Shown here one piece after another: positions 2,898 to 61,514 of a stretch of 64,000 nucleotides of DNA. Each line of letters starts with the position of its first letter. Within the stretch, counting starts at the first letter, position 1. Position numbers and translations under genes: made by a program. The stretch covers positions 2,892 to 66,891 of the forward strand of contig JAFWJF010000001.1 in NCBI GenBank assembly GCA_017511715.1. Direction: 5' to 3'. The notes beneath the pieces were generated by a model. That model saw nothing but the letters and a program-made list of their open reading frames with translations, ran no database searches and was not told the DNA's origin. Source of the stretch: Alphaproteobacteria bacterium. Its GTDB lineage: Bacteria; Pseudomonadota; Alphaproteobacteria; Rs-D84.

Positions 2898-3045
2898 AGA
2901 AACCGACCCAGTGATGATATATCTTTTTGTTTGAAATGTCCAGTGATTTTAATGCGCAAATGCAATTTTCTGCCTTTATTTATATATTGTGTGTATGCAA
3001 TAATCAGTCTGTTAGATGTTTTTTGGTTGTATAAAAGGTGTTCGT

Positions 3046-3642
3046 ATGACTAATAATGAAATTAAAGATACACTTAAGCAGGCAAGTCGCTTGGTTAATA
3101 CGATGGACAAAGAACATATAAAAAATTTATTAAGGGTATTTGTTGACGCGCAGTTTGAGAAAAACTGTGCGTCTTTCTTTTATATAGATATAAAAAAGAC
3201 ACTTAAAAAATTGTTAAGTGATTTGGTTAAAACAGAGCATGTGAACGGGGTTTTGAATCGTAAACAAATGAAGCAGGTTTTTGAGATAATGGGTGATTAT
3301 GGCTTTCGCCCTATATGCAAATTGTGTGGCAAACCAATAGAAATTAATTCCGTCAACCAAAGACATAAAGACCAGTTGAAAAATATGGCTTTCTCGTGGG
3401 ATCATCAGGTGCCAAAGTCAAAGGGTGGCAGTTATGATTTATCTAATTTGCAACCAACACATAAATTATGTAATAATAGACGCGGAACAAAGCCATTATA
3501 CAGCAGACACTATAAAATCAAGTTAAACATTGAACTTTCTGTAGAGTTAGAAGAACAAGGAACACGATATCGTCCTGCCAGCTTCGGTTTGCGAAAACAA
3601 GATTCTTGGTGTCATAAACAATGTTGCCAACGGCAAAGATAA
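3046..3642 (+). CDS. HNH endonuclease family protein
   Basis: Motifs CKLCGKPI...WDHQVPKSKGGSYDLSNLQPTHKLCNNRRG (HNH with zinc-binding Cys). Adjacent to the tRNA-Gly locus. The ORF could start at 3016. Confidence 0.6.
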   Translation: MTNNEIKDTLKQASRLVNTMDKEHIKNLLRVFVDAQFEKNCASFFYIDIKKTLKKLLSDLVKTEHVNGVLNRKQMKQVFEIMGDYGFRPICKLCGKPIEINSVNQRHKDQLKNMAFSWDHQVPKSKGGSYDLSNLQPTHKLCNNRRGTKPLYSRHYKIKLNIELSVELEEQGTRYRPASFGLRKQDSWCHKQCCQRQR

Positions 3643-5379: not shown

Positions 5380-6069
5380 ATGCATTTCAATATATTGACT
5401 GTTTTTCCAGAAATGTTCCCAGGAACCCTTGATAAAGGGGTAGTTGGGCGTGCTTTGGATAAGGGTATATGGTCGTATAAAACAATCAATATTCGTGATT
5501 TTGCGATAAACAACTATGGCAGTGTTGATGATGAACAGTTTGGTGGTGGTGCCGGTATGGTTATGCGCCCTGATGTTCTGGGAAATGCCATAGATTCCAT
5601 AGAAAACAAAGGCAAAATCATATTCTTTTCACCACGTGGCAAACAATTAAATCAAAAATTAGTGCATGATTTTGCAAAATATGATACAATGACCCTGCTC
5701 TGTGGTCGGTATGAAGGTATTGACCAACGGGTTATTGATGAATATGACATTGAAGAGGTGTCAATCGGAGATTATGTTTTATCTGGCGGCGAAATAGCAG
5801 CGCAAGTTTTTGTTGACACTGCCGTTCGCGTGTTGGATAATGTACTTGGTGGCGGTGATGAAGCCGTCCAAAACGAAAGTTTCGAAATCGGCGGGCTTGA
5901 ATGGCCATTATATACCCGTCCGTCAGTATGGCGTGGACATAAAGTCCCAGAAGTCCTGCTGTCCGGTCACCATGGCAATATCAAACGGTGGCGGAAACAA
6001 CAATCGGACGAAATAACAAAGATACGTCGTCCGGATTTAATAAAGGAAAATGAAAATGAGCATAATTAA
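5380..6069 (+). CDS. trmD: tRNA (guanine37-N1)-methyltransferase
   Basis: [16 protein letters not shown]-terminus, [11 protein letters not shown] and YTRP motifs typical of TrmD. Confidence 0.9.
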
Positions 6070-6448
6070 AAAAATTGAACAAGAACAAGTTGCTAAATTG
6101 AAAGGCGATAAAGTTATCCCTGCTTTCAAGGCTGGTGACACAGTTAAAGTTCATGTAAAAATCAAAGATGGTGATAAATTCCGTATCCAAATGTTTGAAG
6201 GCGTAGTTATTGCGCGTGATGGTGGTACTGGAAACAATGCGTCTTTCACAGTGCGCCGTGAATCTTATGGCGTTGGTGTAGAACGCAAATTCCCATTGTA
6301 TAGTCCAGCAATCGAAAAGATTGAAAAAGTTCGTGTCGGTAAAGTTCGCCGTTCGAAATTGTTCTTCTTGCGTGGTTTGTCTGGCAAGAAAGCTCGTATC
6401 GTTGAAGATTTGTCTGCAAAGGCTAAAAACGCCGGCGAAGATAAATAA
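6050..6448 (+). CDS. rplS: 50S ribosomal protein L19
   Basis: [44 protein letters not shown] is canonical L19. Operon context. Confidence 0.9.
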
Positions 6449-18149: not shown

Positions 18150-18594
18150 CTTTTATTTGGTGTTTTTTTCTGTTAAAATAACTCTGTCGGCAAGAGTTTT
18201 GCCGATGGGGTGTCAGAACCCGTTTCGATGCGCGTCCATGATGACGTTAAAACTCCAACCAAATTGGGTTGGAGGGCTGCAAAATATATTGAATATGCAC
18301 ACAATTTCGCATTGAATTGTTCTGAACCTCCAACCGCCTGAAATTTCATGCGGTTTTTTTGGTGTTTGTCCCTTTCGTTGGGGTGTTGTGTGGCGATACA
18401 TACGCAAACATTTGCCACCGTCCCCCGAATAAAAGGGATAAAAAAGTTCTCCTCCGTTGGAGGAGTCCCCGCAGGGAGAGGTGGTCTTGAAAGGATGCCA
18501 GATATTTCAAATTCTTGAAAAAGACCACCCCGCCGTTCCGGCACCCCTCCGCAGGAGGGGAACTGGAAGCAGAGCGAATACAAAAAAAGGACAG

Positions 18595-18742
18595 AGAGAA
18601 TACAAGCAAGGTTTTGGAAACGAAGTGCACCGAAACCGTTGCGGTATACACGCAGACACAAAGTGTCGAGTGAATACGAGAACAAATAATTAGAAAAATC
18701 TTAAAAAATCGAAGTTTACAAGATTTTTTTGATTTTAATTAT
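18595..18742 (+). repeat. tRNA-associated repeat element, copy without tRNA duplication (long variant); likely carries a promoter
   Basis: ggttttggaaacgaagtgcaccgaaaccgtt...cacgcagacacaaagtgtcgagtg matches 32186-32243 and the reverse complement of 2664-2720. The 3' 75 bp matches 38622-38697. A TTTACA-N17-ATTATT promoter-like sequence and a GGAGG RBS lie directly upstream of 18763. Confidence 0.55.
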
Positions 18743-18762
18743 TGTTTATCGAGGAGGAAAAA

Positions 18763-31263: not shown

Positions 31264-31354
31264 GGAGATGTGGCAGAGCTGGTTGAATGCGCGTGACTCG
31301 AAATCACGTATACGGGCAACCGTATCGGGGGTTCGAACCCCTCCATCTCCGCCA
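31264..31354 (+). tRNA. tRNA-Ser (anticodon CGA)
   Basis: ggagatgtggcagagctggttgaatgcgcgtgactCGAaatcacgtatacgggcaaccgtatcgggggttcgaacccctccatctccgcca. Long variable arm, CCA encoded. Confidence 0.85.
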
Positions 31355-31369
31355 GAAAAAAGGTTGTTT

Positions 31370-31948
31370 ATGAACAAAAATTTGCACGATATTATTTTTT
31401 CAATATACGAATATTTTGGCAAGGATAGAGAAAAACTTGATGAGGCGCGGTCCGAATTTTACCGTATTGGCGAAGCCAACCCACGTGTAGCCCTTATGTT
31501 ATATCGAGCATTATTGACAGATTATATAAACCAAAAAAAGAAAAAAATTGCTTTAGCCGATACAATGCGAATATATTTGATAGTTTCTACTAACGCAGAC
31601 TTTTATCTGATACACCCTATTGATGCATTGTCCATGCCAGAAGCAGATAAGTTCTATGAAACATATCACATAAGATATCCGCGTTCATCAACCATATCAA
31701 AAATCTTAATTAACATGAACAGATTTGATTCTGACAAACCAAAAGGCAAACTAGATTTTAAGAACAAATTGCGCGTAAAATATACAGTAAAAGATTCAAA
31801 CTATCCACACTCGTTCAATAAAAGGATGTTTTTACTGAATAAAAATCGCATCAGCAAAGATACCGTATATAAGAAATTAAGCGGATTAAACAAATTTTTC
31901 ATAGCACAAGCCTATAAAAAATACTTGAAAAAACAAAAATCTTTGTAA
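31370..31948 (+). CDS. hypothetical protein inside the tRNA-Ser islet
   Basis: 192-aa ORF (MNKNLHDIIF...) lying between the tRNA and the duplicated tRNA 3' end. Confidence 0.4.
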   Translation: MNKNLHDIIFSIYEYFGKDREKLDEARSEFYRIGEANPRVALMLYRALLTDYINQKKKKIALADTMRIYLIVSTNADFYLIHPIDALSMPEADKFYETYHIRYPRSSTISKILINMNRFDSDKPKGKLDFKNKLRVKYTVKDSNYPHSFNKRMFLLNKNRISKDTVYKKLSGLNKFFIAQAYKKYLKKQKSL

Positions 31949-31962
31949 AAAGAAATCACACA

Positions 31963-32108
31963 TCAAAATCATATGAATTAACAGATTTTACAATCGCATC
32001 AACCAATTTGTTTTGATGAGAATCTGATTTTAATAATTTTTCTTCGTTTTTGTTGGACAAATGCCCCAGTTCTATCAATGCACCCGGTACAGTCGAACGC
32101 AATACTGG
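31963..32108. repeat. direct duplicate of the 3' end of amiC (~145 bp, one mismatch), partner at 33898-34042
   Basis: tcaaaatcatatgaattaacagattttacaatcgcatcaacc...cgaacgcaatactg present twice. Confidence 0.85.
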
Positions 32109-32258
32109 TCATTTTTTATTTATCGTGTATGGGTATGGGGTTAGACGCTACAACGAAGTTGTTGGGTTCGACAAGCAGTAGGTTTTGGAAGCAAGGCGCA
32201 CCAAAACCGTTACGATTGCCCCGCAGGCGAAAGCCGAGGAAATCCTCCATCTCCGCCA
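32109..32258 (+). mobile_element. tRNA-3'-end-associated repeat element (short variant) ending in a duplicated tRNA-Ser(CGA) 3' end
   Basis: Core caacgaagttgttgggttcgacaagcagtaggttttggaagcaaggcgcaccaaaaccgttacgattgcc, about 85% identical to the reverse complement of 2664-2760. The final 15 nt cctccatctccgcca equal 31340-31354. Confidence 0.7.
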
Positions 32259-32288: not shown

Positions 32289-33875
32289 TTATCTGCTGTT
32301 GTCAGGAATTGTCTTGTCCTGTGTTTTTGTAGTTGTTTTTTTTAACAGTTTTTTTACTGCATTTTTCAATTTTTCTTTTTTGCTTTCCCCTTGCATTTTC
32401 AATTTCAGTTCGTTTGCGAAATCTTTAAACTTTTCATGCAAAACAATTGATACTTTGTGAGGTTCTGGTTTCACAAAAATATTATCACTCCATAAAAAAT
32501 CACTCCCTATTCCTTTAACATTTGGCAGATTTATCGACTTTAAGTTTGTATTTTCAGTTAAAAATTCATCGCCAATATCTTCTACTTTCGGTAAACTTAT
32601 TGATGTTAACATTTTATTGTAATACAAGAATCTATTACCAATTTTTTCAACTTTTGGCATGTTTATTGATGTTAATATTTCGTTATTTTCCAAGAAATAG
32701 TCGCCAATTCTTTTTACAGATGGCAAATCTATTGATGTCAATGCGTTATTAGAATTTAAGAAATGCATACCGATTTGTTCGACCTTTGGTAGCGCTATTG
32801 ATGATAACATCTTGTTCTTCACTAAGAAATCACAACCAATTTTCTTAACATTTGGTAAATTTATTGTTGTTAAACTTTTGTTGTGTTCTAAAAAAACGTC
32901 TTTAATTTTTTCTGTTGTAGCTAAATCTAATTCTATAATCTGCCCTTTGAATATTACAATACGATTGCCGTCCAGTGTGGATAACGTCGTTTCTTTTGTT
33001 ATTTTGTTATATGTTCTGGTAACTTTTTTCCCGTTAAATGCCAGATAAAAAACATCAAATGTTGTGCCGTAATCAATTGGTGAAGTTATTGTTTTATCTT
33101 TATCATTATAAATCATGCCATCAAACATGATTTCGCGGTCTTTGTTCAATCGTGTAATTGTGCCACCAGTAAAATAATAATCGTCACCGATGTAAATGTT
33201 GTCTCTTTCAAAACTGTACCAGACCAACTGGTCATTAACCCAAACATAGTTATTTGGCATTTTAATATCAGAAACATTGAATTCTACATCAAAGAATTTT
33301 CGCAATGAATTTGTAAGTCCCGGGATGATATTATCTGGGTTATTACCGAATGTTGCATCTGGATTGTTTACTGTATGGTTATAACGATTTTTAATAGATA
33401 TAAATCCACCACCCTTTGCAATTTGAATTGATATAACAGATGTTCCGTATTCGTCTTCGCGTTCTGGATTTGCGGATGGTTTTATTTTGTCTGCGCCACG
33501 TTTTACCGCATGAATTATATAAAAGTTTTCATGCCTATTGGGGTCACTGAAAGTACATAATTCTTCGCCGGGGCGATAATATTTTTTTATTGAATCTTTT
33601 TGTTTTTTACTTTCAACTATAAACGCGTCATAGCCCGCTTCATCTAACAATTCTAACGGCTTTTTATCTGTGGTATATTGGGATGCAGACATTATTTTAC
33701 ATTTAGACCGGATTGTTGGTATCAATCTTTCTAGATCTTCTAATTGTGTAAATTCTAATATGTGTTCAATATTTGGAACATCCAGCAATTCGGCATTGCG
33801 AAGAATCTTGGCAAAACGTTCACCGCGATGCTTTTTAATATTTTTAAAAACTTCGGCTGTATCTATTTCTTTCAT
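32289..33875 (-). CDS. BspA-type leucine-rich repeat protein with unknown N-terminal domain
   Basis: C-terminal tandem repeats of about 23 aa (LPNVKKIGCDFLVKNKMLSSIALPKVEQIGMHFL...). No signal peptide. Confidence 0.7.
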   Translation of the reverse strand: MKEIDTAEVFKNIKKHRGERFAKILRNAELLDVPNIEHILEFTQLEDLERLIPTIRSKCKIMSASQYTTDKKPLELLDEAGYDAFIVESKKQKDSIKKYYRPGEELCTFSDPNRHENFYIIHAVKRGADKIKPSANPEREDEYGTSVISIQIAKGGGFISIKNRYNHTVNNPDATFGNNPDNIIPGLTNSLRKFFDVEFNVSDIKMPNNYVWVNDQLVWYSFERDNIYIGDDYYFTGGTITRLNKDREIMFDGMIYNDKDKTITSPIDYGTTFDVFYLAFNGKKVTRTYNKITKETTLSTLDGNRIVIFKGQIIELDLATTEKIKDVFLEHNKSLTTINLPNVKKIGCDFLVKNKMLSSIALPKVEQIGMHFLNSNNALTSIDLPSVKRIGDYFLENNEILTSINMPKVEKIGNRFLYYNKMLTSISLPKVEDIGDEFLTENTNLKSINLPNVKGIGSDFLWSDNIFVKPEPHKVSIVLHEKFKDFANELKLKMQGESKKEKLKNAVKKLLKKTTTKTQDKTIPDNSR

Positions 33876-33890
33876 TTTGTTATTCTCTTT

Positions 33891-35084
33891 TTAAACGTCA
33901 AAATCATATGAATTAACAGATTTTACAATCGCATCAACCAATTTGTTTTGATGAGAATCTGATTTTAATAATTTTTCTTCGTTTTTGTTGGACAAATGCC
34001 CCAGTTCTATCAACGCACCCGGTACAGTCGAACGCAATACTGCAAATGGCGCATGACGGACAGATGGGCCTTTTTGTTGTTCTATGCTTGCGCGATTAAA
34101 CGATTTAGCACATCCATTTGCGTATTCTTCGCTTAATTCTGCAACAGCACGTTGTTGCAGTGAAGACAAGGCAACACGAATATCTTTGGAAAATTGTTCA
34201 AATCCGTTAACATCTATTTTATCCGCAGCATTTTCTGAATCTGCCAATTTTTGCGCTTCTTCGTCTGATGCTTTTTCAGACAAAGTATAAATTGAAAAGC
34301 CCTTCATGTCACGACTTGGGTTTGCGTTTGCATGCAAAGAAATGAATAAATCGGCGTGTTTCTTTTCGGCAAATTCTGCGCGTTCTGCCAATTTAAGAAA
34401 AGTATCATTAGAACGAGTCAGGTATGTTTTGTATCCGTTTGCTTCCAGTTTGCTTTTCAGTTTTTTTGCGACAGACAAAACAACCGTTTTTTCTTGTGTG
34501 CCACCACGCCCTGTACATCCCGGGTCTTTGCCACCATGTCCAGGATCAATAACTATGACACGTTTCGCAGAATTATTATTTGTTGTTGATTTTGTTTCTG
34601 ACTTTGTTGCTGTTTTTGCAGTCGTTGTTGATACGGGGGCTGATACGTCTATTCCGCGCCCTGTCCCGGCAGCAAAATCAATAACCAACCGATAATCGTT
34701 ATCGCCATTTGGTTCCAGAATCATTATTTGTTTTTTATCAATCGCGTCTATAAGCCCAGATAATGCACACAACACCTGTAATTTCGTACCATCTTGAATT
34801 TGGGTGACGCGCTTTATCATTGTGTCGTTTGCCAGTTTTGGCTGTATACTGCTGCTGCCCGAAGTGTTTGACAGATTTACAATTAACTGTTTGTCACCAT
34901 AAGATAAATCATATACTGGACGTGAAGAAGTTTCGATTACTAATCGTGTCTTGCCGCCTGGTTGCAGACCTGTTCTTATTGAACGCACCGCATTCGGTGC
35001 AGAAAAAGCAACACGTGGTGCAATCCCAACGACTAACGCACTGAAACTAACTGTCCTTAAAAGTTGTCTGCGACTTAATTTCAT
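33891..35084 (-). CDS. amiC: N-acetylmuramoyl-L-alanine amidase (AmiC-like; Tat signal, AMIN and Amidase_3 domains)
   Basis: Tat motif SRRQLLRTVSF and amidase core VIVIDPGHGGKDPG...LFISLHANA. The ORF could start at 35132. Confidence 0.9.
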   Translation of the reverse strand: MKLSRRQLLRTVSFSALVVGIAPRVAFSAPNAVRSIRTGLQPGGKTRLVIETSSRPVYDLSYGDKQLIVNLSNTSGSSSIQPKLANDTMIKRVTQIQDGTKLQVLCALSGLIDAIDKKQIMILEPNGDNDYRLVIDFAAGTGRGIDVSAPVSTTTAKTATKSETKSTTNNNSAKRVIVIDPGHGGKDPGCTGRGGTQEKTVVLSVAKKLKSKLEANGYKTYLTRSNDTFLKLAERAEFAEKKHADLFISLHANANPSRDMKGFSIYTLSEKASDEEAQKLADSENAADKIDVNGFEQFSKDIRVALSSLQQRAVAELSEEYANGCAKSFNRASIEQQKGPSVRHAPFAVLRSTVPGALIELGHLSNKNEEKLLKSDSHQNKLVDAIVKSVNSYDFDV

Positions 35085-35162
35085 GAGAATCATTATATCA
35101 AAAAAAAGACATGGTTTCAAGAAAAGTTGCAATAAAAAAAACCGCCACTGTGGCGGTTTGAT

Positions 35163-37608: not shown

Positions 37609-38415
37609 ATGAAAAAACTATCTGAAGAATTTTGTTATAACGCGATAAGGGGAACATTTCCAGGCGCGAACAAAATAAGAATTCCGGCTGTTCCGGGGCA
37701 TGTCGCAAAAGTTTTTATTTTTAAGATTAACAATGGTTCGCGCGTATGTCGTTTTAATGAAAAAACACTTGTTATGCGCAATCAAAAACTGACGAAAATG
37801 TTGGTTGATTATGGGGTTCCAATAAAAACAACTCAGGTTCACACTTTCCAAGGACAATATTTTGAATCTTATGAATACGACCCACACAAAACATTGGCAG
37901 AATGCGAAACTGAAATGTCTGATGATGAGATTATAAATGCGTATAAAAGTGCATTGCGCATTCAGGCGCATTTGGCATTATTTCCGTTGCAACAGTTTAA
38001 TCAGATAGATAAATCTCACTTTATGGATGTGTATAAAATAACTATGACTAAATGTATAAACAACTATATGATGCAATATTTGTATCGCGCTGTTTATAAG
38101 CGTTTTTCTGTTGGCAAAAATATGTGTGTAGCACATACTGATTTGACACCCGCAAATATGTTGGTATCAGACAATCATAATGATATCGTACGACTTATTG
38201 ATTTTGATGCTATTTCGATTTGCAATGAAAATATGGCTGTTTTCAGTGCGTTACGCTTATACCCATTATCTAGTGCAAAAGAACTTGTTGAATATTATCA
38301 AGACATATCAGGACACAAATTAAACTATCGCGAGATTATGTTTATGTTGAAACTGTTCAAAGGAACCCTGGACTTTCGCAAACGGCTAAATGACATTTCG
38401 TTCAGACAGCATTAG
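37609..38415 (+). CDS. phosphotransferase (APH / choline-kinase-like) family protein
   Basis: Brenner motif HTDLTPANMLV and RLIDFDA (DFD). Confidence 0.65.
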   Translation: MKKLSEEFCYNAIRGTFPGANKIRIPAVPGHVAKVFIFKINNGSRVCRFNEKTLVMRNQKLTKMLVDYGVPIKTTQVHTFQGQYFESYEYDPHKTLAECETEMSDDEIINAYKSALRIQAHLALFPLQQFNQIDKSHFMDVYKITMTKCINNYMMQYLYRAVYKRFSVGKNMCVAHTDLTPANMLVSDNHNDIVRLIDFDAISICNENMAVFSALRLYPLSSAKELVEYYQDISGHKLNYREIMFMLKLFKGTLDFRKRLNDISFRQH

Positions 38416-38458
38416 TTTCTTGCTTTTGTATGTTAAATATTTATAATTAGATTGATTT

Positions 38459-38535
38459 GCACCCATAGCACAACTGGATAATGCGTTGGCCTCCGAAGCC
38501 AAAGATTGCAGGTTCGAGTCCCGCTGGGTGCGCCA
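38459..38535 (+). tRNA. tRNA-Arg (anticodon CCG)
   Basis: gcacccatagcacaactggataatgcgttggcctCCGaagccaaagattgcaggttcgagtcccgctgggtgcgcca. Confidence 0.85.
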
Positions 38536-38539
38536 TGAA

Positions 38540-38572
38540 TAAAAAAAGACCCAGCAGGGTCTGTTTTTTATT
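38540..38572 (+). terminator. rho-independent terminator after tRNA-Arg
   Basis: aaaaaaagacccagcagggtctgtttttt. Confidence 0.6.
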
Positions 38573-38575
38573 CAC

Positions 38576-38712
38576 TTATGAAGCACCGCGGGACAGGTCA
38601 GAGCGAAGCGCATGACCAATCCGCAGATAAACAATTAAGAAAATATTAAAAAATCGACGTTCACGAGATTTTTTTGATTTTATTTATTGTTTATCAAGGG
38701 CTGGGTGCGCCA
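38576..38712 (+). mobile_element. tRNA-associated repeat element (long variant) ending in a duplicated tRNA-Arg 3' end
   Basis: 38622-38697 is about 85% identical to 18667-18742. The upstream part is a diverged version of the core (aagcgca..acc.a.ccgcag). It ends with gctgggtgcgcca, equal to 38523-38535. Confidence 0.6.
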
Positions 38713-38876
38713 CAAATAAAAAGCCGGTCTTTTAATTATTTTTTTATATAAAAATGCGTCAAAAAGGCCGGCAACAAAAACAAACTGTTTTTTTAATTTT
38801 TTGCGTTATATCAATCAGAAATCGCATGTTATTAAAGCAAAAAATAAAACCGGTTGTTCAACCGGTTTTTATCTGC

Positions 38877-40691
38877 TTATTTTTGCACAAAGTGTACGCT
38901 GTATTGTGGTTTTTTGTCTGCCCCCAAACTGGCGCGCACGACTTTGTTTGATGCAACCTGAACTGCATGGACTAAATTATCACGATTTTTGCGTTCTGTT
39001 TTGGTTAATTTATCAATCGCATTTGTGATTTCGATTTGTATTTGGCGTTTCATAAAACCTGTGTCATCAGACTCAAAGATTCCTGCACTAGAAACTTCTG
39101 GCACACCTTTAAGGAAACCGCGCTTGTCCACCGGCAAAGTCACAAAGATTGCACCATTTGAAGCGATTTTTTTGCGTGTTTTATACACTGGGTCATTGGC
39201 ACTGCGTTCTGTTTCGCCTTCCATAACGACAAAGCCCGTTGGGATAGATTCGCAAACATACGGTTCTGTGCCGTCTTTGAGCGCGATAACATCGCCATTA
39301 TGGACAATCATCATATGTTTAGCCCCACCGCGTTCCATAGCCATTTTTCCGTTCAACATTTCAGAAATAAATTCCCCATGCATTGGAATTGACACTTGTG
39401 GGTGCACTAAATCATAGAATCTTTCCAATTCAGGACGCCCCGCATGGCCAGAAGCATGCAAATTATCTGTATCAAATATTGTGTAAGTTTTGATACCCAT
39501 GCGCGCCAATTTGTTGTAAAGATAAGAAACGTCTTGTTCACGCCCAGGAATAATAATTGCGCTGAAAACCACAGTATCTGTCGGCATCAATTTCAATTCT
39601 TTTACGTGCCCATTACAAAGACGTGTTAACATAGCGAATTTTTCACCCTGGGAACCGGTCAAGAATATAGCCTGTTTTTCGGCTGGCAAATCTTTGATTT
39701 CATCAAAAGTATAAACGTCATCTTTGCCGATATAGCCGTATTCTATACCGATTTCGCGGAATTCTGGCAACCCGACATAAGGCACAGGATTTGGGTTGCT
39801 GCGTTCTTTGATACAGGCGACCCTGCCTGCGGCTTTTGCGGCTTCTGAAAACATTTTGATACGCGCAAGGCTGCGAGAATAGCCGGTAACCAGTACGCGT
39901 CCTGGTGCTTTTTTCATAATTTCTGTTAACGTTTCACGCACCTGAACTTCTGTAGTTTGTGGGGTTTGTCTTTCTGCCGATGTAGAATCACAAACGCACG
40001 CCAACAATTTTGGGTCGGACCCTATTTCTGCCAGGCGAGTATAATTTGTCTTTGGTTCGATTGGGTTGTCATCATTGAAAGTCCAATCGCCCGTATGCAA
40101 GATTTTTCCAGCCGGTGTCTTGATTATCAACATTTGTGCTTCTGGGATAGAGTGTGAAACATGGAAAGTTTCAACTATAAATGGGTCAAGATTAAGTTCT
40201 GCCCCGTTTGCATCAAATTCGATGATATCTTTTTCTGGGTTATAGTCCAATTCGATTCCATCAAATGTGCGGCGCAATATTTCGGCCGGGAAACGCGTGC
40301 AATAGATAGGTTTTCTAAACTTTGGCCAGATGTATTTCAGTGCGCCGATATGGTCTTCGTGTCCGTGAGTAATAACAAAACCCACGACATCTTTTTTGTG
40401 TTTTTCCAGCCATGTTGTATCACAGTATTGAACATCGCCTGCCCCGATTTCTTCTTCCAAGAAGCCCATACCGCAATCAACGATTAAATATTTACCTTTA
40501 TATTTATATACATACATATTTTGACCGACGTGTTCCAAACCGCCAAGTGCCATAAAATATACTTTATCATCGTTTTTATTGCTTTCCGGTTTTTCTTTTA
40601 CGGTGCTGGCGCGTGCTGGCGCGCTCTTTTTTGTCGTAGTTTTGGCTTTTTTTGCCAATTTTTCTTTAATTTTTTCTTTTATTTTCATCAT
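38877..40691 (-). CDS. rnj: ribonuclease J with Lys-rich N-terminal extension
   Basis: Metallo-beta-lactamase HGHEDHIG, beta-CASP and RNase J C-terminal domain. N-terminus KIKEKIKEKLAKKAKTTTKK. Confidence 0.9.
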   Translation of the reverse strand: MMKIKEKIKEKLAKKAKTTTKKSAPARASTVKEKPESNKNDDKVYFMALGGLEHVGQNMYVYKYKGKYLIVDCGMGFLEEEIGAGDVQYCDTTWLEKHKKDVVGFVITHGHEDHIGALKYIWPKFRKPIYCTRFPAEILRRTFDGIELDYNPEKDIIEFDANGAELNLDPFIVETFHVSHSIPEAQMLIIKTPAGKILHTGDWTFNDDNPIEPKTNYTRLAEIGSDPKLLACVCDSTSAERQTPQTTEVQVRETLTEIMKKAPGRVLVTGYSRSLARIKMFSEAAKAAGRVACIKERSNPNPVPYVGLPEFREIGIEYGYIGKDDVYTFDEIKDLPAEKQAIFLTGSQGEKFAMLTRLCNGHVKELKLMPTDTVVFSAIIIPGREQDVSYLYNKLARMGIKTYTIFDTDNLHASGHAGRPELERFYDLVHPQVSIPMHGEFISEMLNGKMAMERGGAKHMMIVHNGDVIALKDGTEPYVCESIPTGFVVMEGETERSANDPVYKTRKKIASNGAIFVTLPVDKRGFLKGVPEVSSAGIFESDDTGFMKRQIQIEITNAIDKLTKTERKNRDNLVHAVQVASNKVVRASLGADKKPQYSVHFVQK

Positions 40692-41011: not shown

Positions 41012-44000
41012 ATGGCGGGAATCAAGCCTTTTTATAACATGTTAAAGCGTTTAATATTTGCAATATTCGTAGTGTTTACTGCAAATTCTGCATTTGCGGC
41101 GTGTGCTAGCAATCAAATTGATGTAAATGGTGATGGAACCAAATGTGAGGATGTGAAATTCACATTAGACCTTTCCAGAAGTTCAAACATAACGGTTTTC
41201 AATTTCTTTATGTCTGCCAAAGGAACATTTTATGTCGATTGCGGCAATGGCGGAACATTGACCAGCAATTCTGCCACTAATTACCCGGTATCGGGCAAAA
41301 CAGTTAACCGTACCTATGGAACGGGTAATGTAAGGTACTCTTGTACATGGGCCAATGGCAGCAAGACACAAACAATTAGGTTTGGTGGGGTTGCAGAAGG
41401 ATATAGCACCAATACAAGCACCGCCGCAATACGTTTTAATTATAATGCAACACAAGCGGCATATATAACATCAGTTTCTGGTAATTTGTCCGCTATGTTC
41501 CCGTATATTACAAACAATGCACAAAGTGGTGCACAACCAAGATTTTATATGACTTTTGATAAAGCGACAAACCTGAAAAGTATCCCCGATACATTGTTTG
41601 CAAATTACACAACACCGGCAACAAATATGTTTCATTCTACGTTTAACAATTCAGGATTGACATCAATACCTAGCAATTTGTTTTCCACCATATCTGGCGC
41701 AGCAGAAGGTCTGTTTTCTAGCACATTTAATGGATGTACCGGCTTAACATCAATACCTGGCAATTTGTTTTCCACCATATCTGGCGCAGCAAACAGCTTG
41801 TTCTATGGCACATTTCAGAATTGTACCGGCTTAACATCAATACCTAGCAATTTGTTTTCCGGGGTGTCTGGCGGGGCAAGTTCTATGTTTTTTTTCACGT
41901 TTAAAGGATGTACCGGCTTAACATCAATACCTGGCAATCTGTTTTCCACCATATCTGGCGCAGCAAACAGCTTGTTCTATGGCACATTTAGTGGATGTAC
42001 CGGCTTGACATCAATACCTAGCAATTTGTTTTCCACCATATCTGGCGCAGCAGACGGTCTGTTTTCTAACACATTTAATGGATGTACCGGCTTAACATCA
42101 ATACCTGGCAATCTGTTTTCCGGGGTGTCTGGCGGGGCAAGTTCTATGTTTTCTTACACGTTTAATGATTGCAGTTCGATATCTGCAATACCGGCAGGAC
42201 TATTTTCCGGTGTAAACCAGGCGGCAACAGGTTTGTTCATGAATGCATTTTCTGGTTCTGGGGTAAGTGGTTATATACCACCGACCACATTTTCCGGGTT
42301 GATTTCGGCGGGCAGCCCACAAAGTTCAGATATGTGGCTAGATACATTTTCATACACGAATTTAACAGCGACTTGTCCACAGGGAACAACGCAGTATATG
42401 ACAGGATACGAAGGTGGCACTAATGGTCCTACATGGAATGGGATGGTTTCTTGTACGCCAAATTCGACCACTGCAATTGCAGTAACTTTGGACAGTGCAG
42501 GCGCGACCACAAATGCCACACCTTCGACAATATATCTTCGATACGAGGATCGTTGGTACAGTAATTCTGCCCTTTCTGTTCAGATAAGTTCGCTTAACAC
42601 CATTCCATCAAAAACGGGATATATGTTCGGCGGTTTTTACACTCAACCAAATGGTTCCGGAATACAAATTATCAATTCAAATGGTTACATCTTGCAAACC
42701 ATGGAAGCAATCACGTTTACAACCACACCGACAACCGTGTATGCTTATTGGATAGAACCAAAGTTCACATTAACAACATCATCGACCAACAGTTTTCAAT
42801 TTAAACTATCTGCCGCTGGTACATTCTATGTAGACTGCGGAAACGGTGGAACGTTAAGTGGAACCGGGGCGTCCGGAAACACAATTACGCGTGCCGACAC
42901 AACCGAAGCGACATATACATGTTCATGGACCAACAGTGCAACACGAACAATCAGATTCAGCGGTGCCGCAACCGGGTATAATTCGTCTTATGGTGTTGCA
43001 GCAATAAAGTTTAATATGACAGATGCTGCCACTGATGCAAACGCAGCATTGTTAACGGGTATGTCTGGCACACTGGGGTCAATATTCGGAACAGTTGCCA
43101 CCGCCAGCACAGGCTCTGTTCAACCAGCATTTAATAAGACATTTTATGGTGCATCAAACCTTAATGCGTCAATACCGTCAAACTTTTTTGCGGGCGTTCA
43201 TGGTGCACCACGCGGGGGAATGTTTCAACAAACCTTTTCTGGATGCAGCAGTTTGACCGGCTCTATCCCAGAAACCCTATTCTGTGAAAACACGACCAAT
43301 CCAAGTGCATCAAACTGTATCTATGGAGCACCAATTGGGGCAATGTTTGAACATACATTCCTTGGTTGTAGTGGTTTGACGGGTTCTATCCCAGAAAAAC
43401 TGTTTGTGGGTATCCATGGCGCGCCTGCAAGTTATATGTTTTCTCAGACATTTAATGGATGTAGTGGTTTGACGGGTTCTATCCCAGAAAAACTATTCTG
43501 TCAAAACACAACCAGCCCATCTGCATCAAACTGTATCTATGGCGCACCGGCATCATCTATGTTTGCCTTGACATTTTATGGATGTAGTGGATTAACTGGC
43601 TCTATTCCAGAAAAACTGTTCGTTGGTATCCATGGTGCACCAGCAAATAATATGTTTCAACAAACATTCTATAATTGTAGTGGTTTAACTGGCTCTATTC
43701 CAGAAAAACTATTCTGTCAAAACACAACCAGTCCATCTACATCAAACTGTATCTATGGCGCGCCGGCAAGAGCTATGTTTTTTCACACTTTTTCTGGTTG
43801 TACAAATTTAACTGGTTTGATACCACAAAACCTTTTCAAAGGGATATACGGCGCGCCGGCAGAAAATATGTTTAATGGTACATTTAGGAATGACAACAAA
43901 TTGACAGGAATAACCGACGGCACAACTACCACAACCTATGTTCCATCAACATTCCTTAGCGCGATTAACAACACAAGCGCAACAACACCAGCAACAGGAA

Positions 44001-47000
44001 TGTTTACTGGTACGGGGCTTGCATCGTCTTGTCCGACGTGGGCAGCCGCCGCAACACCGGTATGGGCAACTGATGCTGGTAAGCCATGGTGCGAACCAGA
44101 TATAAAATTCACATTAAACACATTAGCGACTAACAGTTTTCAATTTAAACTATCTGCCGCTGGTACATTCTATGTAGACTGCGGAAATGGCGGAAGGTTA
44201 AGTGTGGTAAACGGTAACGGAACAGTTTCTGGGAATACGATAACAAAAACAGGTACTTCGTGGGGGACATTTGAATGTTCTTGGGATGATACCGAACCAC
44301 AAACACTTCGATTTGGTGGTGCAGCATCAGGGTACACTGCAAGCCAATCAGGCGGTGCAATAAGATTTAATGTTTCTGATACAAACCAAGATGATGATAC
44401 AAACGCACCAAAGATCACCGGAATATCCGGGTCATTGGGTGCAATATTTGGAACCATAGATGGCACGGTTTCCCCAACAGGCGCGGAATCACAACCAAGA
44501 TTCTATGGAACATTTTGGGCTGCATCCAACCTTGCTGGTTCAATACCAGACGAGCTTTTCTATGGCATACATGGCACACCAATATCATATATGTTTAACC
44601 GTACTTTCCGTGGTTGTAGCAGTTTAACTGGAAAAATACCTGAAACATTATTCTGTCAAAACACAAGCAACCCAAATGCATCAAACTGTATTTATGGCGC
44701 ACCGACACAACAGATGTTTTACATGACTTTTCACGGATGTAGCGGTTTGACAGGAAATTCTTCAACCGGATATGCCATTCCTGCAAAATTATTTGCAGGT
44801 ATTCGTGGTGATCCATCTTCAGCATCGAGTGTGTTTGGTTATACATTTTCCGGTTGTAGTGGTTTAAATGGGCAAATACCTGAAACATTATTCTGTCAAA
44901 ACCCGAACAGCCCCAGTGCATCAAACTGTATCTATGGTGCGCCGGCATCAAATATGTTTTCATTTACATTCCAAGGATGCACTGGTTTGACAGGTGACGG
45001 TATACATGCCGTTCCAGTAAAGTTGTTTGCAGGTCTCCATGGCGCGCCGGCACCAAAAATGTTTCAATCTACTTTTACTGGCGACACAGGATTGACAGGG
45101 GAAATTCCACCTGCGCTATTCTGTGGTGGTAATACGAATAATCTGAGTAATCCATCTGCCTCAAACTGTATCTATGGCACCCCGGCAACAGAAATGTTTA
45201 ATAGTACGTTTTATAATACTAGAATAACACATGTAGATAAAAATATGTTTGCGGGGATATCCGGTACTTCTGCGGAAAAGATGTTCTATCGTACATTTAA
45301 AAGTTGTAGTTCATTGTCGTACATAAATGATACCTTTAACACAAAAGCGACAACTTACATTCCGTCAGATTTCCTTGGTGGCATTACTGATGGATCCGTG
45401 ACAAATGACGCAACAGAAATGTTCACAGGTACGGGACTCACATCACCTTGTCCGACGGGGACAGCCACCGCAACACCGGCGTGGGCAACGGATGCTGCCA
45501 AACCATGGTGTGCACCCAACACATATAGCATTACATATGATATGAATGGTGGAACAAACTATTCCGGCGCACCTACAACATATGTTTATGGGACAAGTAC
45601 AACAATTAATGGCGCACCAACAAAATCAGGCTATATATTCAAAGGATGGACTGGTTCTAATGGTTCAACACCACAACCAACCGTGACGATTGGTGCAAGT
45701 GCCACCGGGGCAAAATCTTACACTGCGAACTGGGAAACGGCAAAATTCACATTAACCACATCAGGAATGAGCGATTTCAGCTTCAAGCTTTCGCCAAAGG
45801 GAACATTCTATGTCGATTGCGGAAATGGTGGAACGTTAAGTGGTCAAAGCGCGTCCGGCAGTACAGTTTCCGTCAACACAATCACACGTACAACCACAAC
45901 CGCAACAACATATACTTGTAGCTGGGCCAGTAGTGCTGGAAACAAAACAATATCTTTTGGCGGGTCTGCCACAAATACCACAACAACATATAACTCAGAT
46001 ACGAACGTACCAGCAATACATTTTTTGGAAAGTAGTAATGCAGACTCAATCAAAAGCGTATCTGGTAATTTGTCCGCGATGTTCCCGTACATCACATCAA
46101 ATGCACAAAGTGGTGCTCAACCAAGGTTTAACAGAACATTTTATGATGCAACACACTTGACCAGTGTTCCCGATACATTATTCGCAAATTATACCACACC
46201 CGCAACATATATGTTTAGTAATACATTTGCAAGTTCTGGGTTAACATCGATACCGGCGGGACTGTTTTCCCGCATAACCGGTGCAGCAACCGGTTTGTTC
46301 GAGGGTACATTTAGCGGTGCGCGCTTAACATCAGTGCCGGCGGGGCTATTTGCCGGGATATCTGGTGTGGCAGACAGTTTGTTTAATAGCACATTTACTG
46401 GCACACCAATAACATCTATACCAGAGAATTTGTTTGCCGGGGTATCGGGGTCTGCATCTGGCGTGTTTTCTTACGCTTTTTATCGTTGCGCTAGCCTGGC
46501 CACCATAACAAATGGGCAAACAAGTACGACCTATGTTCCGGGAACGTTCCTTAGTGATGTTACTGGCAATGACAATTACATTGGTGCCGACATGTTTGGC
46601 ATGACAGACTTGGCTGACACCTGTCCATATGGTATGGGCGATACAACACCGGCATGGGCAAGTGATGCTGGTAAACCATGGTGTTCTCCCAATACATATA
46701 CAATAACCTATTCTGCCGGTCAAGGTGGCGTTGGTGCAAACCAAACGGAAAACGTTGTGTTTGGCACCACATTTACCACAAAATCTGCAAATACGTTTAG
46801 TAAACCACACGCTACATTTACAGGCTGGGATACTCTTGAATACTCTTCAGCCTGGACACAACCAGATACAACATATACTTATGATTTGCCGTCAGATATT
46901 ACGATTGCAGCACAATGGACATGTGATTCTGGATACACATTAAATAACAGCACCGGAAATTGCGATGCCAACAGTATCACATGTGATCCAGGTTTTTATC

Positions 47001-50000
47001 TGAAAGGCAACACTCTAACATGTACGGCATGTCCTGCTGGTAAATATTGCGCGGGTGGCACATACACTCATAACGGTACGGACTTAGGTATAACTGGCGA
47101 TGTTACGGCGGGATATTTTGCTTCTGGTGGTGCAAAGGTCGCAGCCCCAACCAGCAACAGCGATTGCTTAAGCGGTAATACATGCGGTAAATGTACGACA
47201 GATTCTGCCACTGGTCGTCCTGCGTATTCAACAGCTGGAGCAGCAAGTTGTTCGGCATGCCCTGCAGTAACGGGCGATATGGCAAGTCGTGTTATCTCTT
47301 ATGCAGGTTGGTGGAGCAACGATATACATAATGCGGTTACAGGATGCGCTGCCTGGTTCAATGATACAGATAATGATGCAACATTCAGAGTGTATTGCTA
47401 TTATAACACTACAGATGGTGCCTATGGTGGTTCAAACAGCATTTGCCAAGTATGGCATCCGACTGCTTGTGCAGCAGGAAAATATGATACGATAGAATCA
47501 ACAACGGAATGGCTTGCTTCTGCTAATTACACACGTGGGAAAGGTGTAGATTTCATGAATGGCAAGGTTTGTACAAACACAGATGCAGGTTATTACAGTG
47601 CCGAAGGTTCTTTGACACAAACCGCATGTGCAGCAGGCTCTTACAGCAGTGCGGGCGCAAGTACATGTACGGCATGTCCGGCGGGTAAGACAACCGCTGG
47701 CACTGGAACGGCTTTCAACACTAATGCAAACACTACATGTTCAACAAGTTGTTCGTCTATCGCAAACCTGAAAACTTGGAACAGTCAGACTTGGAACAGC
47801 GCAAATAATACAGTGACTAATTTGTGCACGGTTGCAACTTGTAATGCTGGGGCATATAAGTCTGGTAACACTTGTCCGGTTTGTGGTGCGAATTCTTGGT
47901 CAGATGATGGTGCAAGCAGCTGTACAGCATGTAACACGACCAATGGATACACGAACAGTGGAACAACAGCGGCGGCTCATGCTGGTCAGTACAGTTGTAA
48001 GACCACGTGTGCGGCAGGTAAACAAGTTGCAAGTCCTGGCGAGGCATGTTCTACCCCCGGTGGCAGTTGGTATTCTGTTCAACACACTGTAGGGGAAGGA
48101 TCGACATCCGCTGTTCAGCTGATAAGTAATCCGAATGTATTTGATTGTTTAATTGGTGGCTATGCAACACCTGACACAACTATACAAACAGACCACGATG
48201 CAAGCACAGATTGTAGGATAACATGTTCTGCAGGAAGCAGAGTCACAACGCCTAATGGTATGTGTACAGCGATAACGAGTGGCAATGTATATATGCTTGA
48301 ACATACTGTTGCCCAGGGATCTACATCACCAAAAGCAACATCATGCCCAACAAGTTATACAATCAGCGGTTCTACACAAGCAGACCACGATGCGAAGAAC
48401 GATTGTAAGATAACATGTGGTGCTGGATATGTTGTTGACACAGAAGATGGTAATTGTATTGTGCCAGAAGAAGGTTTCCAGACAGGGATACATACAGTAA
48501 GCGCAGGAAGTGTGACACGAATAGATAAAGATCCAGGCATGAACGTACCCCGTGCAGGAATATGGTATGACTGTTTGACTAACTATAGTGCGACAGGCAA
48601 AAGCGCAATCAACCACGATCAAAGAAGTGATTGTAAAATAACATGTAATGCGGGAACACAGATTGCAACTAACAATGCAACTAGGTGCACGACACCGACA
48701 GGAAGTTGGTACACAGAACAACATACAGTAAGTGCAGGCAGCACGAGTAGTCCAACCAGTTGTGCGACAGGCTATGCAACAGCAAACACATCAACCGCAA
48801 CAGACCACGATGCGCAAGCCGATTGTAAGATTGGGTGCAGTGCTGGATATTATATACCAACAGCAGGTGGTGGATGCAAGGCATGTCCTGCTGGTAAATA
48901 CTGCACAGCAATAAGTGGTATTGCAGAAACTGCAACATCTGCCGCGACAGGAAACATAACGGCTGGGTATTTTGCTTCTGGTGGTGCAAAGGTCGCAACC
49001 CCAACAAGTAGCAGCGATTGCTTAAGCGGTAATACATGCGGCACATGCCAGGGACAGAATGGACCAAATGGTCGTCCACTTTATACTGATGCAACCGGCG
49101 GCGCAGCACAATGTTCTGAGTGTCCAGCAGTAGAAGCATCTTTAACAAGTCGTGTTGTCTCATATGGTTATTGGCCAGATACGCGTGACAGAGGGATACA
49201 AAATTGTTCTGCGAAATTCACTGATACAGATCCTGATGCTACGTTTACTACGGAATGTTATTATAGAGGCTCTAATTATCATGAATCCTTTAACTGTCAA
49301 ACCGCCGCACCAACCGCTTGTGCTGCGGGTAAGTATGAAACTATCAGAACAACAGACAAATGGGGCACATATTACGCCATTGGTACTGGAGTAGATCATA
49401 TGAACGGTAAGGTTTGTACGGATACAGATGCAGGTTATTACAGTGCCGAAGGTTCTTTGACACAAACCGCATGTGCAACGGGTTCATACAGCAGTGCTGG
49501 CGCAAGTACATGTACGGCATGTCCGGCGGGTAAGACAACCGCTGGCACCGGAACAGCTTTCAACACTAATGCAAACACTACATGTTCAACAAGTTGTTCG
49601 TCTATCACAAACCTAAAAACTTGGAACAGTCAGACATGGAACAGTTCAAATAATACAGTGACTAATTTGTGCACGGTTGCGACTTGTAATGCTGGGGCAT
49701 ATAAGTCTGGTAACACTTGTCCGGTTTGTGGGGCGAATTCTTGGTCAGATGCTGGTGCAAGCAGCTGTACAGCATGTCAAACAGATTATACCAACAGCGG
49801 AACAACAGCGACAAACCATGCAGGAAACGCATCTTGTAAGATAACTGTATCTGGCGGTCATTATATTGGCACACCCGGTCAAAACAGCACAAACTGGGGA
49901 ACATGTGATGCAGGAACCTTTAAGGCGCAACATACCGTGGCATATGGCAGCACAAGTAGTTGTTCGAACTGCGAAGGCAGAACGAAGTACAGTGCGGCAG

Positions 50001-61335: not shown

Positions 61336-61348
61336 GGTGCGAGCAAAG
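61333..61348. repeat. duplicated 3' end of tRNA-Gly(GCC) (tttggtgcgagcaaag), partner at 61436-61451
   Basis: 16-bp exact direct repeat flanking an 87-bp insert. Confidence 0.75.
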
Positions 61349-61437
61349 TACTTCGGCAACTAGCGTTGCCTCGCCTCGCAACTCGCCCCTTTGCCGCAAA
61401 AATCAAAAACCGCCCTAACGGACGGTTTTAAAATTTT

Positions 61438-61514
61438 TGGTGCGAGCAAAGGGGCTCGAACCCTCGACCTCAACCTTGGCAAGGTTGCGCTCTAGCCAAC
61501 TGAGCTACGCTCGC
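61438..61514 (-). tRNA. tRNA-Gly (anticodon GCC)
   Basis: Reverse complement gcgagcgtagctcagttggctagagcgcaaccttGCCaaggttgaggtcgagggttcgagcccctttgctcgcacca. Confidence 0.85.

Follow-up and report, generated by a model that had tools for sequence, protein, structure and literature searches.

A tRNA-Arg(CCG) tail element of RtT-like design and its relatives in rumen and gut Alphaproteobacteria

The tRNA-Arg(CCG) locus and the other copies in the window

The tRNA-Arg(CCG) gene lies on the + strand of the window, by which we mean the whole 64-kb stretch of DNA that was analysed. It is followed on the same strand by an element (38583-38712, 3' of the tRNA at 38459-38535) that carries two copies of the tRNA end, one inverted and one direct. 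Convergent genes, tRNA-Arg itself and RNase J, flank the locus. The element belongs to what we call type 2; type 1 is described with the family below. The features of the locus are as follows.

38459-38535, + strand: intact tRNA-Arg(CCG) gene with encoded CCA (ARAGORN; Rfam tRNA, 60.6 bits)
38536-38574, + strand: first terminator, consisting of an A tract, the stem-loop AGACCCAGCAGGGTCT and a T tract (terminator scan, inverted repeats)
38583-38594, + strand: IR-left, an inverted copy of the tRNA-Arg 3' end (local alignment)
38596-38617, + strand: hairpin H1 (GGTCA GAGCGAAGCGCA TGACC), present in 10 type-2 elements
38618-38626, + strand: linker AATCCGCAG (17-copy alignment)
38626-38695, + strand: long AU-rich hairpin module of 70 nt, the imperfect palindrome GATAAACAAT...ATTGTTTATC (alignment, consensus fold)
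38700-38712, + strand: direct copy of the last 13 nt of tRNA-Arg including CCA (exact repeat), continuing to 38722 at 91%
38713-38745, + strand: second terminator, decayed (comparison with locus L030)

ARAGORN and Rfam both identified the tRNA, and the terminator scan revealed a terminator-like hairpin at 38547-38562 followed by a T run, in agreement with the original prediction of a tRNA-Arg(CCG) gene followed by its terminator. The first terminator is a palindrome throughout (TGAATAAAAAA / TTTTTTATTCA), and the tRNA end, terminator and inverted arm together make up an imperfect palindrome of about 80 nt (38516-38594) that is nearly unbroken. The second terminator is undamaged in the close relative L030, where it reads aaagccggtcttttgaccggtttttt. 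It had also been claimed that a 13-nt duplicate of the tRNA 3' end closes the element, and this was borne out. The window has exactly two occurrences of GCTGGGTGCGCCA, one in the tRNA (38523-38535) and one at 38700-38712, against a chance expectation of 0.06, and none of 100 shuffled sequences had two matches. This duplicate is the core of a 23-nt repeat (38523-38545 and 38700-38722, 91% identity), which reaches into the A tract of the first terminator. The spacing between the direct repeats is 164 bp and holds no ORF, and AAGG separates the long hairpin from the direct copy. In the linker AATCCGCAG, the tRNA-end copy begins with AATCC, and GCAG is the left flank of the long hairpin that is conserved in the 17-copy alignment.

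Local alignment revealed the origin of the inverted arm. IR-left reads GCACC--GCGGGAC and is, with a 2-nt gap, the reverse complement of tRNA-Arg ...GTCCCGCTGGGTGC. Its alignment with the reverse complement GCACCCAGCGGGAC scored 17, which was reached or exceeded in 2 of 2000 shuffles, whereas the best non-cognate tRNA scored 12. The sequence within IR-left is GCGGG, which complements CCCGC in the 3' strand of the T stem; the 5' strand of the T stem reads GCAGG. Therefore, IR-left was templated by the 3' strand. A diverged repeat core had been proposed for the sequence beyond the terminator, but 38576-38625 actually consists of this inverted tRNA-Arg 3' end and H1, and P3, the conserved hallmark module of the core, is absent. 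Consistent with this, the covariance model of the type-1 core gave no match in 38500-38720 even at E<=1, and the element also lacks the GTAG that precedes P3 in type 1. The similarity of the following 75 bp to another place in the window, put at about 85%, is genuine (61 of 70 positions, 87%), although the partner had been placed at 18667-18742 and truly lies about 10 nt further right, so that 38626-38695 aligns with 18681-18750.

The Arg element is not alone in the window. Four of the five tRNA genes bear such tails; these tails and the inverted tRNA copy had been overlooked by the original prediction. The further copies are as follows.

2644-2795, - strand: type-1 element of tRNA-Gly(CCC) (tRNA 2824-2897; folding z = -5.0; core 99 bits)
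18594-18673 and 18681-18750, + strand: orphan type-1 core and long hairpin module (core 83 bits; 17-copy alignment)
32118-32258, + strand: type-1 element with a 15-nt copy of the tRNA-Ser(CGA) 3' end at 32244-32258 (core 83 bits)
61336-61399, - strand: minimal element of tRNA-Gly(GCC) (tRNA 61438-61514), with an inverted tRNA end, one hairpin and a 14-nt direct copy at 61336-61349

The tRNA-Gly(CCC) element consists of IR-left, P2, GGTTCGA, a P3 and P4 core (2662-2741) and a 20-nt copy of the tRNA end (2644-2663), and a terminator copy lies beyond it at 2612-2643. The inverted copy at tRNA-Gly(GCC) was matched or beaten in 1 of 2000 shuffles, while the inverted arms of type-1 copies A and C were too diverged to reach significance as DNA in the shuffle test. 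The type-1 core covariance model found these three other copies at 83-99 bits and none at the Arg element. The orphan copy (18594-18750) has no adjoining tRNA and lies immediately 5' of the ribosome-binding site and ATG of a gene for a secreted repeat protein, an arrangement that has an orthologue in L031. The tRNA-Ser(CGA) gene (31264-31354) is about 800 bp from its type-1 element, and an open reading frame, ORF192, occupies the interval. ORF192 has two homologues, without annotation. One of them adjoins tRNA-Ser(CGA) in L040, a locus with neither an element nor a copied tRNA end, so that ORF192 is a resident gene.

The family in related genomes and its folding

A search of a species-representative genome collection with the core pattern found 26 loci, and 13 metagenome loci were found with a palindrome pattern. 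In total, the family comprises about 40 loci from Candidatus Enterousia-like rumen genomes, and the covariance model likewise gave about 40 copies of the type-1 core. The hosts are uncultured rumen or gut Alphaproteobacteria, several of them named Candidatus Enterousia; the one exception is a chance match in a coding region. The elements follow tRNA-Pro, Ser, Arg, Gln, Met or Gly in the same orientation at nearly all loci, and about 35 of the related loci have the element on the same strand directly 3' of the tRNA. In nearly all loci, the 3' end of the element is the neighbouring tRNA's own 3' end. Thus, the general layout begins with the tRNA and its terminator, continues with the inverted tRNA end, the structured body and the direct tRNA end, and closes with a further terminator; the direct repeats are 13-55 nt across loci. 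Of the tRNA genes encountered in this lineage, most are followed by a member of the family.

Two types share this layout. In type 1, a diverged inverted copy of the T arm and acceptor (consensus GAYGAGAACC) is followed by P2, GGTTCGA, a core of about 75 nt (P3 and P4), and CGAGnGAATCC with the tRNA end. The core is placed exactly within the T loop (GGTTCGA / body / AATCC), GTAG precedes P3, and the loops are of the GNA type (GCGAAGC). Type 2, the type of the Arg element, has a near-perfect inverted arm of 17-19 nt, sometimes with TGG opposite CCA, after which come H1 and the long hairpin; a copy of the 11-13 nt at the tRNA 3' terminus completes it. H1 takes the position of the variable P4 hairpin of type 1. 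The long hairpin is optional in type 1, where it lies between P4 and the tRNA end; it follows a type-1 core in L006, L019, L020, L024, L035 and at 18594-18750 in the window. This agrees with the claim that short and long variants exist. Fifteen further copies of the long module were found in related genomes and metagenomes, which gave 17 aligned copies, and among the copies found there was no instance of the long hairpin on its own. Tandem arrays were also observed (three units of 167 nt in L011, three of 74 nt in L015, and L006), and L038 carries type 1 and type 2 in tandem.

The folding of these elements is supported by covariation. The Arg element is predicted to fold as a three-way junction closed by its two tRNA-derived arms (z = -4.55; z-scores of the Arg and tRNA-Gly(CCC) elements are -4.5 to -5), and GCACC/GGTGC closes its minimum-free-energy fold. 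Pairing in the type-1 core reaches 97.1% of cells, with compensatory double changes at 13 of 17 pairs; none of 500 shuffles equalled this pairing, and slid controls were 31-44% paired. The H1 stem shows compensatory changes among the 10 type-2 elements (GGTCA/TGACC, GGCCA/TGGCC, CACCA/TGGTG). The consensus of the long hairpin holds G-U pairs as well as compensatory changes on the tRNA-sense strand, and the module behaves as a folded single strand on that strand. Over all helices, G-U pairs stand against A-C pairs at about 19 to 9, which is weak support for folding of the sense strand. An RNA duplex-energy test of cognate pairing gave just a weak trend for the inverted arms of type 1. At least two of the structured motifs, the P3-P4 core and the long AU-rich hairpin, are well supported and have no Rfam family.

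Comparison between genomes revealed that bodies are conserved while arms change. The tRNA-Met cores are 95-98% identical between genomes in which the flanking orthologous protein is 75% identical and fourfold-degenerate sites are saturated (0.41-0.52 identity); divergence between these genomes is seen in the terminators and the inverted arm. The Arg element and its counterpart in L030 have the same body (100% identity) next to proteins that are 90% identical, and identity of the Arg body to bodies behind tRNA-Ser(GGA) is 91-95%. The arms of the Arg and tRNA-Ser(GGA) elements are 39-50% identical, each being cognate to its own tRNA. The type-1 cores differ from the type-2 body in this respect: grouping them by tRNA type gives 0.91 identity, grouping them by genome 0.82-0.84, so that they cluster with the tRNA type. 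Intragenomic homogenisation of these cores was rejected for this reason. The tRNA-Arg(CCG) locus itself differs in relatives, carrying a short type-1 element in L014 and a long one in L024. In L020, a partial tRNA-Arg copy is fused at the T loop to a core and hairpin upstream of the intact gene; the RNase J of this locus is 96% identical to that of the window. The different types at one tRNA-Arg locus look more like turnover than a fixed gene. Taken together, the conserved bodies, the cognate arms and the differing tRNA-Arg loci indicate that bodies are kept, arms are re-made for each tRNA, and loci rearrange. The conservation among many copies can also stem from ongoing spread or gene conversion instead of host function.

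Neighbouring genes and comparison with known systems

The genes around the elements were searched for a possible source of mobility. No mobility family is common to the 113 ORFs within 1.8 kb of 39 loci (Pfam), and no transposase, HUH enzyme, reverse transcriptase or integrase recurs there. These flanking ORFs matched 88 Pfam families, and Phage_integrase does not appear in the top 25 by frequency; the matches point to housekeeping functions. Pfam analysis of the window's ORFs showed housekeeping genes, one XerC/D-like recombinase, which is the only recombinase of the window and is 16 kb from the Arg element, and one HNH ORF (3016-3642) that adjoins tRNA-Gly. A GIY-YIG ORF lies inside one element only (L019). 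Neither the HNH ORF nor the GIY-YIG ORF has a counterpart at the other loci, and no RAYT or TnpA was found in the window.

Database searches likewise brought no known relative. Four viral-contig scans gave no match save one chance match inside a coding region, and BLAST against plasmids and phages gave none; a phage or plasmid origin was rejected on these searches. Rfam, used at gathering score and at E<=10 on three element regions, returned only the tRNAs and a weak, partly mis-registered match to RtT. Several known RNAs and elements were tried and set aside. A hammerhead ribozyme, which GAUGAG...CGAA had brought to mind, does not fit at the essential core positions and had no Rfam match, and a tmRNA or Y-RNA-like RNA was unsupported by ARAGORN or Rfam. 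An omega-RNA of IS200/IS605 (scaffold with 3' guide) was rejected as TnpA and TnpB are missing and the two end hairpins are dissimilar, and an integron attC-like site as there are no R-box motifs.

The closest resemblance is to RtT (RF00391), which has been unexplained since the 178-bp repeats behind E. coli tRNA-Tyr were sequenced. To our knowledge, RtT is known only from enterobacteria and only behind tRNA-Tyr. In the tyrT-tyrV operon of E. coli K-12, the rttR unit consists of an inverted GGGGAAGGAT, which is the complement of the tRNA-Tyr end, GAGAAGC, AGGTTCGA, the body, GAGTAATCC and, at its end, 19 nt that repeat the tRNA-Tyr 3' terminus with CCA. The Rfam consensus structure of RtT closes on the same pair of arms. 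The annotated 171-nt RttR starts just past the tRNA and ends at the CCA of the copied end, and the E. coli units are in tandem (3.14 units). The elements described here share this design: they follow a tRNA gene immediately and on the same strand, the last nucleotides of the unit repeat the 3' end of that tRNA with CCA (about 19 nt in E. coli, 13 nt in the Arg element), the structure is closed by pairing of this direct copy with an inverted complement of the tRNA end further upstream, and tandem arrays occur (L011, L015, L006). In type-1 copies the likeness extends to a body within a split T arm (AGGTTCGA / body / AATCC) and to the junction motifs GGATGAGAAsC, GGTTCGA and CGAGnAATCC. The split T-arm junction (GGAUGAGAAcC ... 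AGGUUCGA / body / AAUCC) is present in L001, L024, L025 and other type-1 relatives and partial at 2644-2795 in the window. It is absent from the Arg element, which thus lacks the GGATGAGAACC...GGTTCGA junction that is common to RtT and type 1.

The differences from RtT are also clear. Many tRNA species are served here, whereas all E. coli K-12 copies examined flank tRNA-Tyr. An intrinsic terminator stands between tRNA and element here, and E. coli RtT has none. Extra modules (the P3 domain and the 70-nt AU-rich hairpin) are present, and the host belongs to a distant alphaproteobacterial lineage. Neither an nhmmer profile of the E. coli units nor the covariance model revealed sequence homology of the bodies. 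A type-1 copy scored 12.7 bits with the Rfam RtT model against a gathering threshold of 45, and 38440-38760 gave no RtT match at E<=10. Therefore, the family is RtT-like in design but is not a member of RF00391. The Arg feature is real, and it is a modular variant of the RtT kind in a distant lineage. The RtT design thus stands behind four of the five tRNA genes in the window of an unrelated gut alphaproteobacterium with a reduced genome, which suggests a general, recurrent route to tRNA-tagged RNAs, or tRNA-end-seeking elements. The dozens of natural variants in this lineage give a handle on the role of the tRNA-like stem in processing, stability or charging, and on the templating of the arms.

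Other known systems share single traits with the family. The attL/attR duplications left by integrases (genomic islands, CIMEs) also have a direct repeat of the tRNA 3' end starting in the T loop, an intact upstream tRNA and tandem accretion; here, however, integrase and cargo are lacking, the insert measures 164 bp, the target copy is inverted as well, and the structured body is conserved. REP/REPIN sequences and IS200/IS605 miniatures are likewise short, multi-copy, strand-specific hairpins near terminators that would need a trans-acting enzyme, and the GTAG head of type-1 P3 and its GCGAAGC/GNA loops resemble theirs, but in our family the arms follow the neighbouring tRNA, the elements are bound to tRNA genes, and the DNA examined holds no RAYT or TnpA. 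A MITE has constant terminal inverted repeats related to a parent transposon and a short fixed target duplication, whereas here the inverted repeat comes from the local tRNA and varies by locus, and the direct repeats (13-55 nt) are not fixed. The primer-binding sites of LTR retroelements and the tRNA-tagged retroplasmids (Mauriceville plasmid, Neurospora) offer a further comparison. They share a tRNA 3'-end complement of 17-19 nt with a boundary near position 58 and sometimes TGG opposite CCA, a match to whichever tRNA is used, and a predicted RNA that ends in a tRNA-like CCA stem; they differ in that no reverse transcriptase or LTRs were found here and the cognate tRNA gene adjoins the element.

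Candidate explanations of the element

We propose that the Arg feature is a type-2 copy of a modular, non-coding family of tRNA tails that would act as RtT-like structured RNA modules, a reading to which we give about an even chance. It draws on the anatomy and its chance tests, the cognate arms, the covarying helices, the strong conservation of bodies beside changing arms and terminators, the size and distribution of the family, and the parallel with RtT. The inverted arm covers the tRNA between the acceptor end and the T loop, at about position 59. On the sense strand, the two tRNA-derived arms would pair into a stack like that of acceptor and T stem, forming a minihelix that ends in NCCA and carries the body on top. 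The body is H1 with the 70-nt AU-rich hairpin in the Arg copy, and a P2-P3-P4 domain in the T loop in type 1. By analogy with RtT, transcription that starts at the tRNA promoter may continue past the first terminator into the element. Because the arm stem with CCA resembles a tRNA end, tRNA-processing enzymes may then excise the element, and the product may be a small stable RNA with a regulatory or other role. Several points speak against this reading, namely the good intrinsic terminator between tRNA and element, the sequence homology to RtT, which is not demonstrable, the absence from the Arg copy of the junction common to RtT and type 1, the diverged inverted arms of type-1 copies A and C, the possible origin of body conservation in spread or gene conversion, and the turnover-like differences at the tRNA-Arg locus. 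From the swapping of arms, the T-loop junctions and the tandem arrays, we infer that new copies form at tRNA ends and that copying re-templates both arms from the local tRNA. The terminator palindrome might allow fold-back copying, units that have been excised might insert by homologous (Campbell-type) recombination, or tRNA-primed reverse transcription might stop in the T loop.

In an alternative reading, a purely selfish, non-autonomous mobile element with no RNA role in the host is moved in trans and targets the T loop and 3' end of tRNA genes; it might take the form of a single-stranded-DNA hairpin (REP/REPIN or IS200/IS605 miniature) or of a small retroelement with a primer-binding-site-like arm. 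The near-identical bodies with different near-perfect cognate arms behind different tRNAs, the precise GGTTCGA / ... / AATCC insertion junctions, the T-loop fusion in L020, the tandem arrays including the two types in L038, and the change of type at the tRNA-Arg locus are all consistent with such an element. So are GTAG before P3, as in REPs, with GNA-type loops, and an arm boundary at about 58/59, sometimes with TGG opposite CCA, that recalls the 18-nt primer-binding site of retroviruses. However, no mobility enzyme recurs at the 39 loci, the window offers only the XerC/D-like recombinase, viral, phage and plasmid collections gave no match, and the clustering of type-1 cores by tRNA type fits vertical inheritance. 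We regard the selfish reading, in all these forms, as unlikely. It is distinctly unlikely, in our estimate, that the elements are a new kind of bacterial mobile unit, one which seeks out the ends of tRNA genes and, with every move, makes its arms anew from the target tRNA. Such a unit might use tRNA-primed or snap-back copying that halts in the T loop, with the inverted arm as the analogue of a primer-binding site, or a guide-like arm that chooses the tRNA; if this were true, the same process would have left E. coli RtT as a fossil. Direct repeats that run from the T loop through CCA into the terminator are also what tRNA-integrated elements leave, and the locus might thus be a CIME-like scar of a tyrosine-integrase element that entered the tRNA-Arg 3' end with crossover in the T loop and was mostly deleted, with attL in the tRNA and the 13-nt copy as attR. 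The tandem accretion and the extra genes between tRNA and element at two loci (ORF192 in the window and the GIY-YIG ORF in L019) would agree with this, but just 164 bp lie between the repeats, no integrase is present there or near the 39 loci examined, ORF192 is resident as judged from the element-free L040, and neither the inverted arm and covarying conserved body nor the occurrence of one body behind tRNAs of differing sequence is expected of a scar, which makes this origin highly unlikely.

Compared with the RtT-like RNA module, the two remaining alternatives do not involve a released RNA or concern only the long hairpin. The nearly continuous palindrome at 38516-38594, the two terminators that always bracket the elements, the position between the convergent tRNA-Arg and RNase J genes, and TTAA-N7-TTAA, which is present in the long hairpin, may point to a device that works at the level of DNA or transcription, i.e., a reinforced or bidirectional terminator, an insulator or a protein-binding site between convergent genes. 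This would leave unexplained the conserved bodies with strand-specific G-U and compensatory changes and the direct copy of the tRNA end, and it does not fit the orphan copies upstream of a gene; we consider it very improbable. The least probable of the readings is that the long 3' segment is a mobile promoter carried by the long variant, as the promoter-like sequence named in the original prediction would have it. Two promoter-like sites were found in 38300-38950, but both are on the minus strand and at the frequency of shuffled sequences (2.0 +/- 1.4). There is no + strand gene downstream of the Arg element; because RNase J converges on the locus, nothing on that strand is there to be driven. 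The behaviour of the module as a folded single strand also argues against a promoter. The orphan copy is a different case: about 10 nt separate the end of its long module from the ribosome-binding site of the gene, as they also do in the L031 orthologue, and the module contains a TTTACA-16-AATTAT match (9 of 12 positions), so that, judged from this sequence, a promoter at the orphan copy is possible.

Rearrangement of the tRNA-Arg locus and likeness to REP elements

The tRNA-Arg(CCG) gene is rearranged at L020, a locus in a related genome. At 5815-6200 on the minus strand, positions 1-58 of the tRNA are joined at the T loop to a type-1 core (the core with P3 and P4) and the long hairpin module, GGTTCGA being followed at the junction by CAAGCAGTAG. 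A promoter-like stretch lies past the fused core and long hairpin, and then comes an intact tRNA-Arg, which has no element downstream. The RNase J adjoining this locus is 96% identical to the RNase J of the window.

H1, the first hairpin of the tRNA-Arg element in the window (38596-38617, AGGTCAGAGCGAAGCGCATGACC), resembles a REP element adjoining E. coli rttR (L042 796-822, GTAGGTCGGATAAGCGAAGCGCATCCGAC), and the two have a GCGAAGC mini-hairpin in common. Type-1 elements carry GTAG directly before P3, as REPs do. The stem and loop of the first terminator, between tRNA-Arg and its element (ACCCAGCAGG, 38549-38558), are complementary at 9 of 10 positions to the tRNA-Arg acceptor strand (CCCGCTGGGT, 38520-38529). 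This could allow alternative pairing, or it may be due to chance; such complementarity was not seen at the other loci. The long hairpin of the tRNA-Arg element in the window contains TTAA-N7-TTAA (38635-38649), which resembles the alphaproteobacterial CtrA box and is kept in about half of 17 long-hairpin copies.

Nuclease ORFs and the amidase duplication

Two nuclease ORFs and two genes of the tRNA-Ser(CGA) region are located as follows.

L019 5062-5304, minus strand: GIY-YIG nuclease ORF, 81 aa (Pfam E = 8.5e-17)
Window 3016-3642: HNH endonuclease ORF, 208 aa, ~120 nt upstream of tRNA-Gly(CCC)
Window 32289-33875: BspA-type LRR gene
Window 33891-35132, minus strand: amidase gene

The GIY-YIG ORF sits between tRNA-Gln and a type-1 core, and L019 is the only locus with a gene of this kind at an element. 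No homologue of the HNH ORF was found at other element loci. The amidase gene has 148 bp of its 3' end duplicated at 99% identity (31960-32107 and 33895-34042), and the block between the copies contains a type-1 element, its terminator and the LRR gene. In L040, from a related genome, the order is tRNA-Ser(CGA), the ORF that follows this tRNA in the window, and amidase, without the block of element and LRR gene. In the window, tRNA-Ser(CGA) lacks a terminator (31264-31370), and 15 nt past it begins an orphan ORF of 192 aa, for which the protein collection contains only two homologues.

Other repeats

Hairpin repeats rich in GC (CCCCTCC..GGAGGGG and GGTGGTCTT..AAGACCACC) are clustered at 18440-18580 within this AT-rich genome. 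These repeats, present also in L008, L014 (2650-2770) and L031, adjoin orphan cores, which have no neighboring tRNA, or come just past the second terminator of an element; they are probably a repeat family of their own. A 3533-aa ORF (41012-51613), with tandem repeats of 87 nt and 216 nt inside, probably encodes a giant surface protein.
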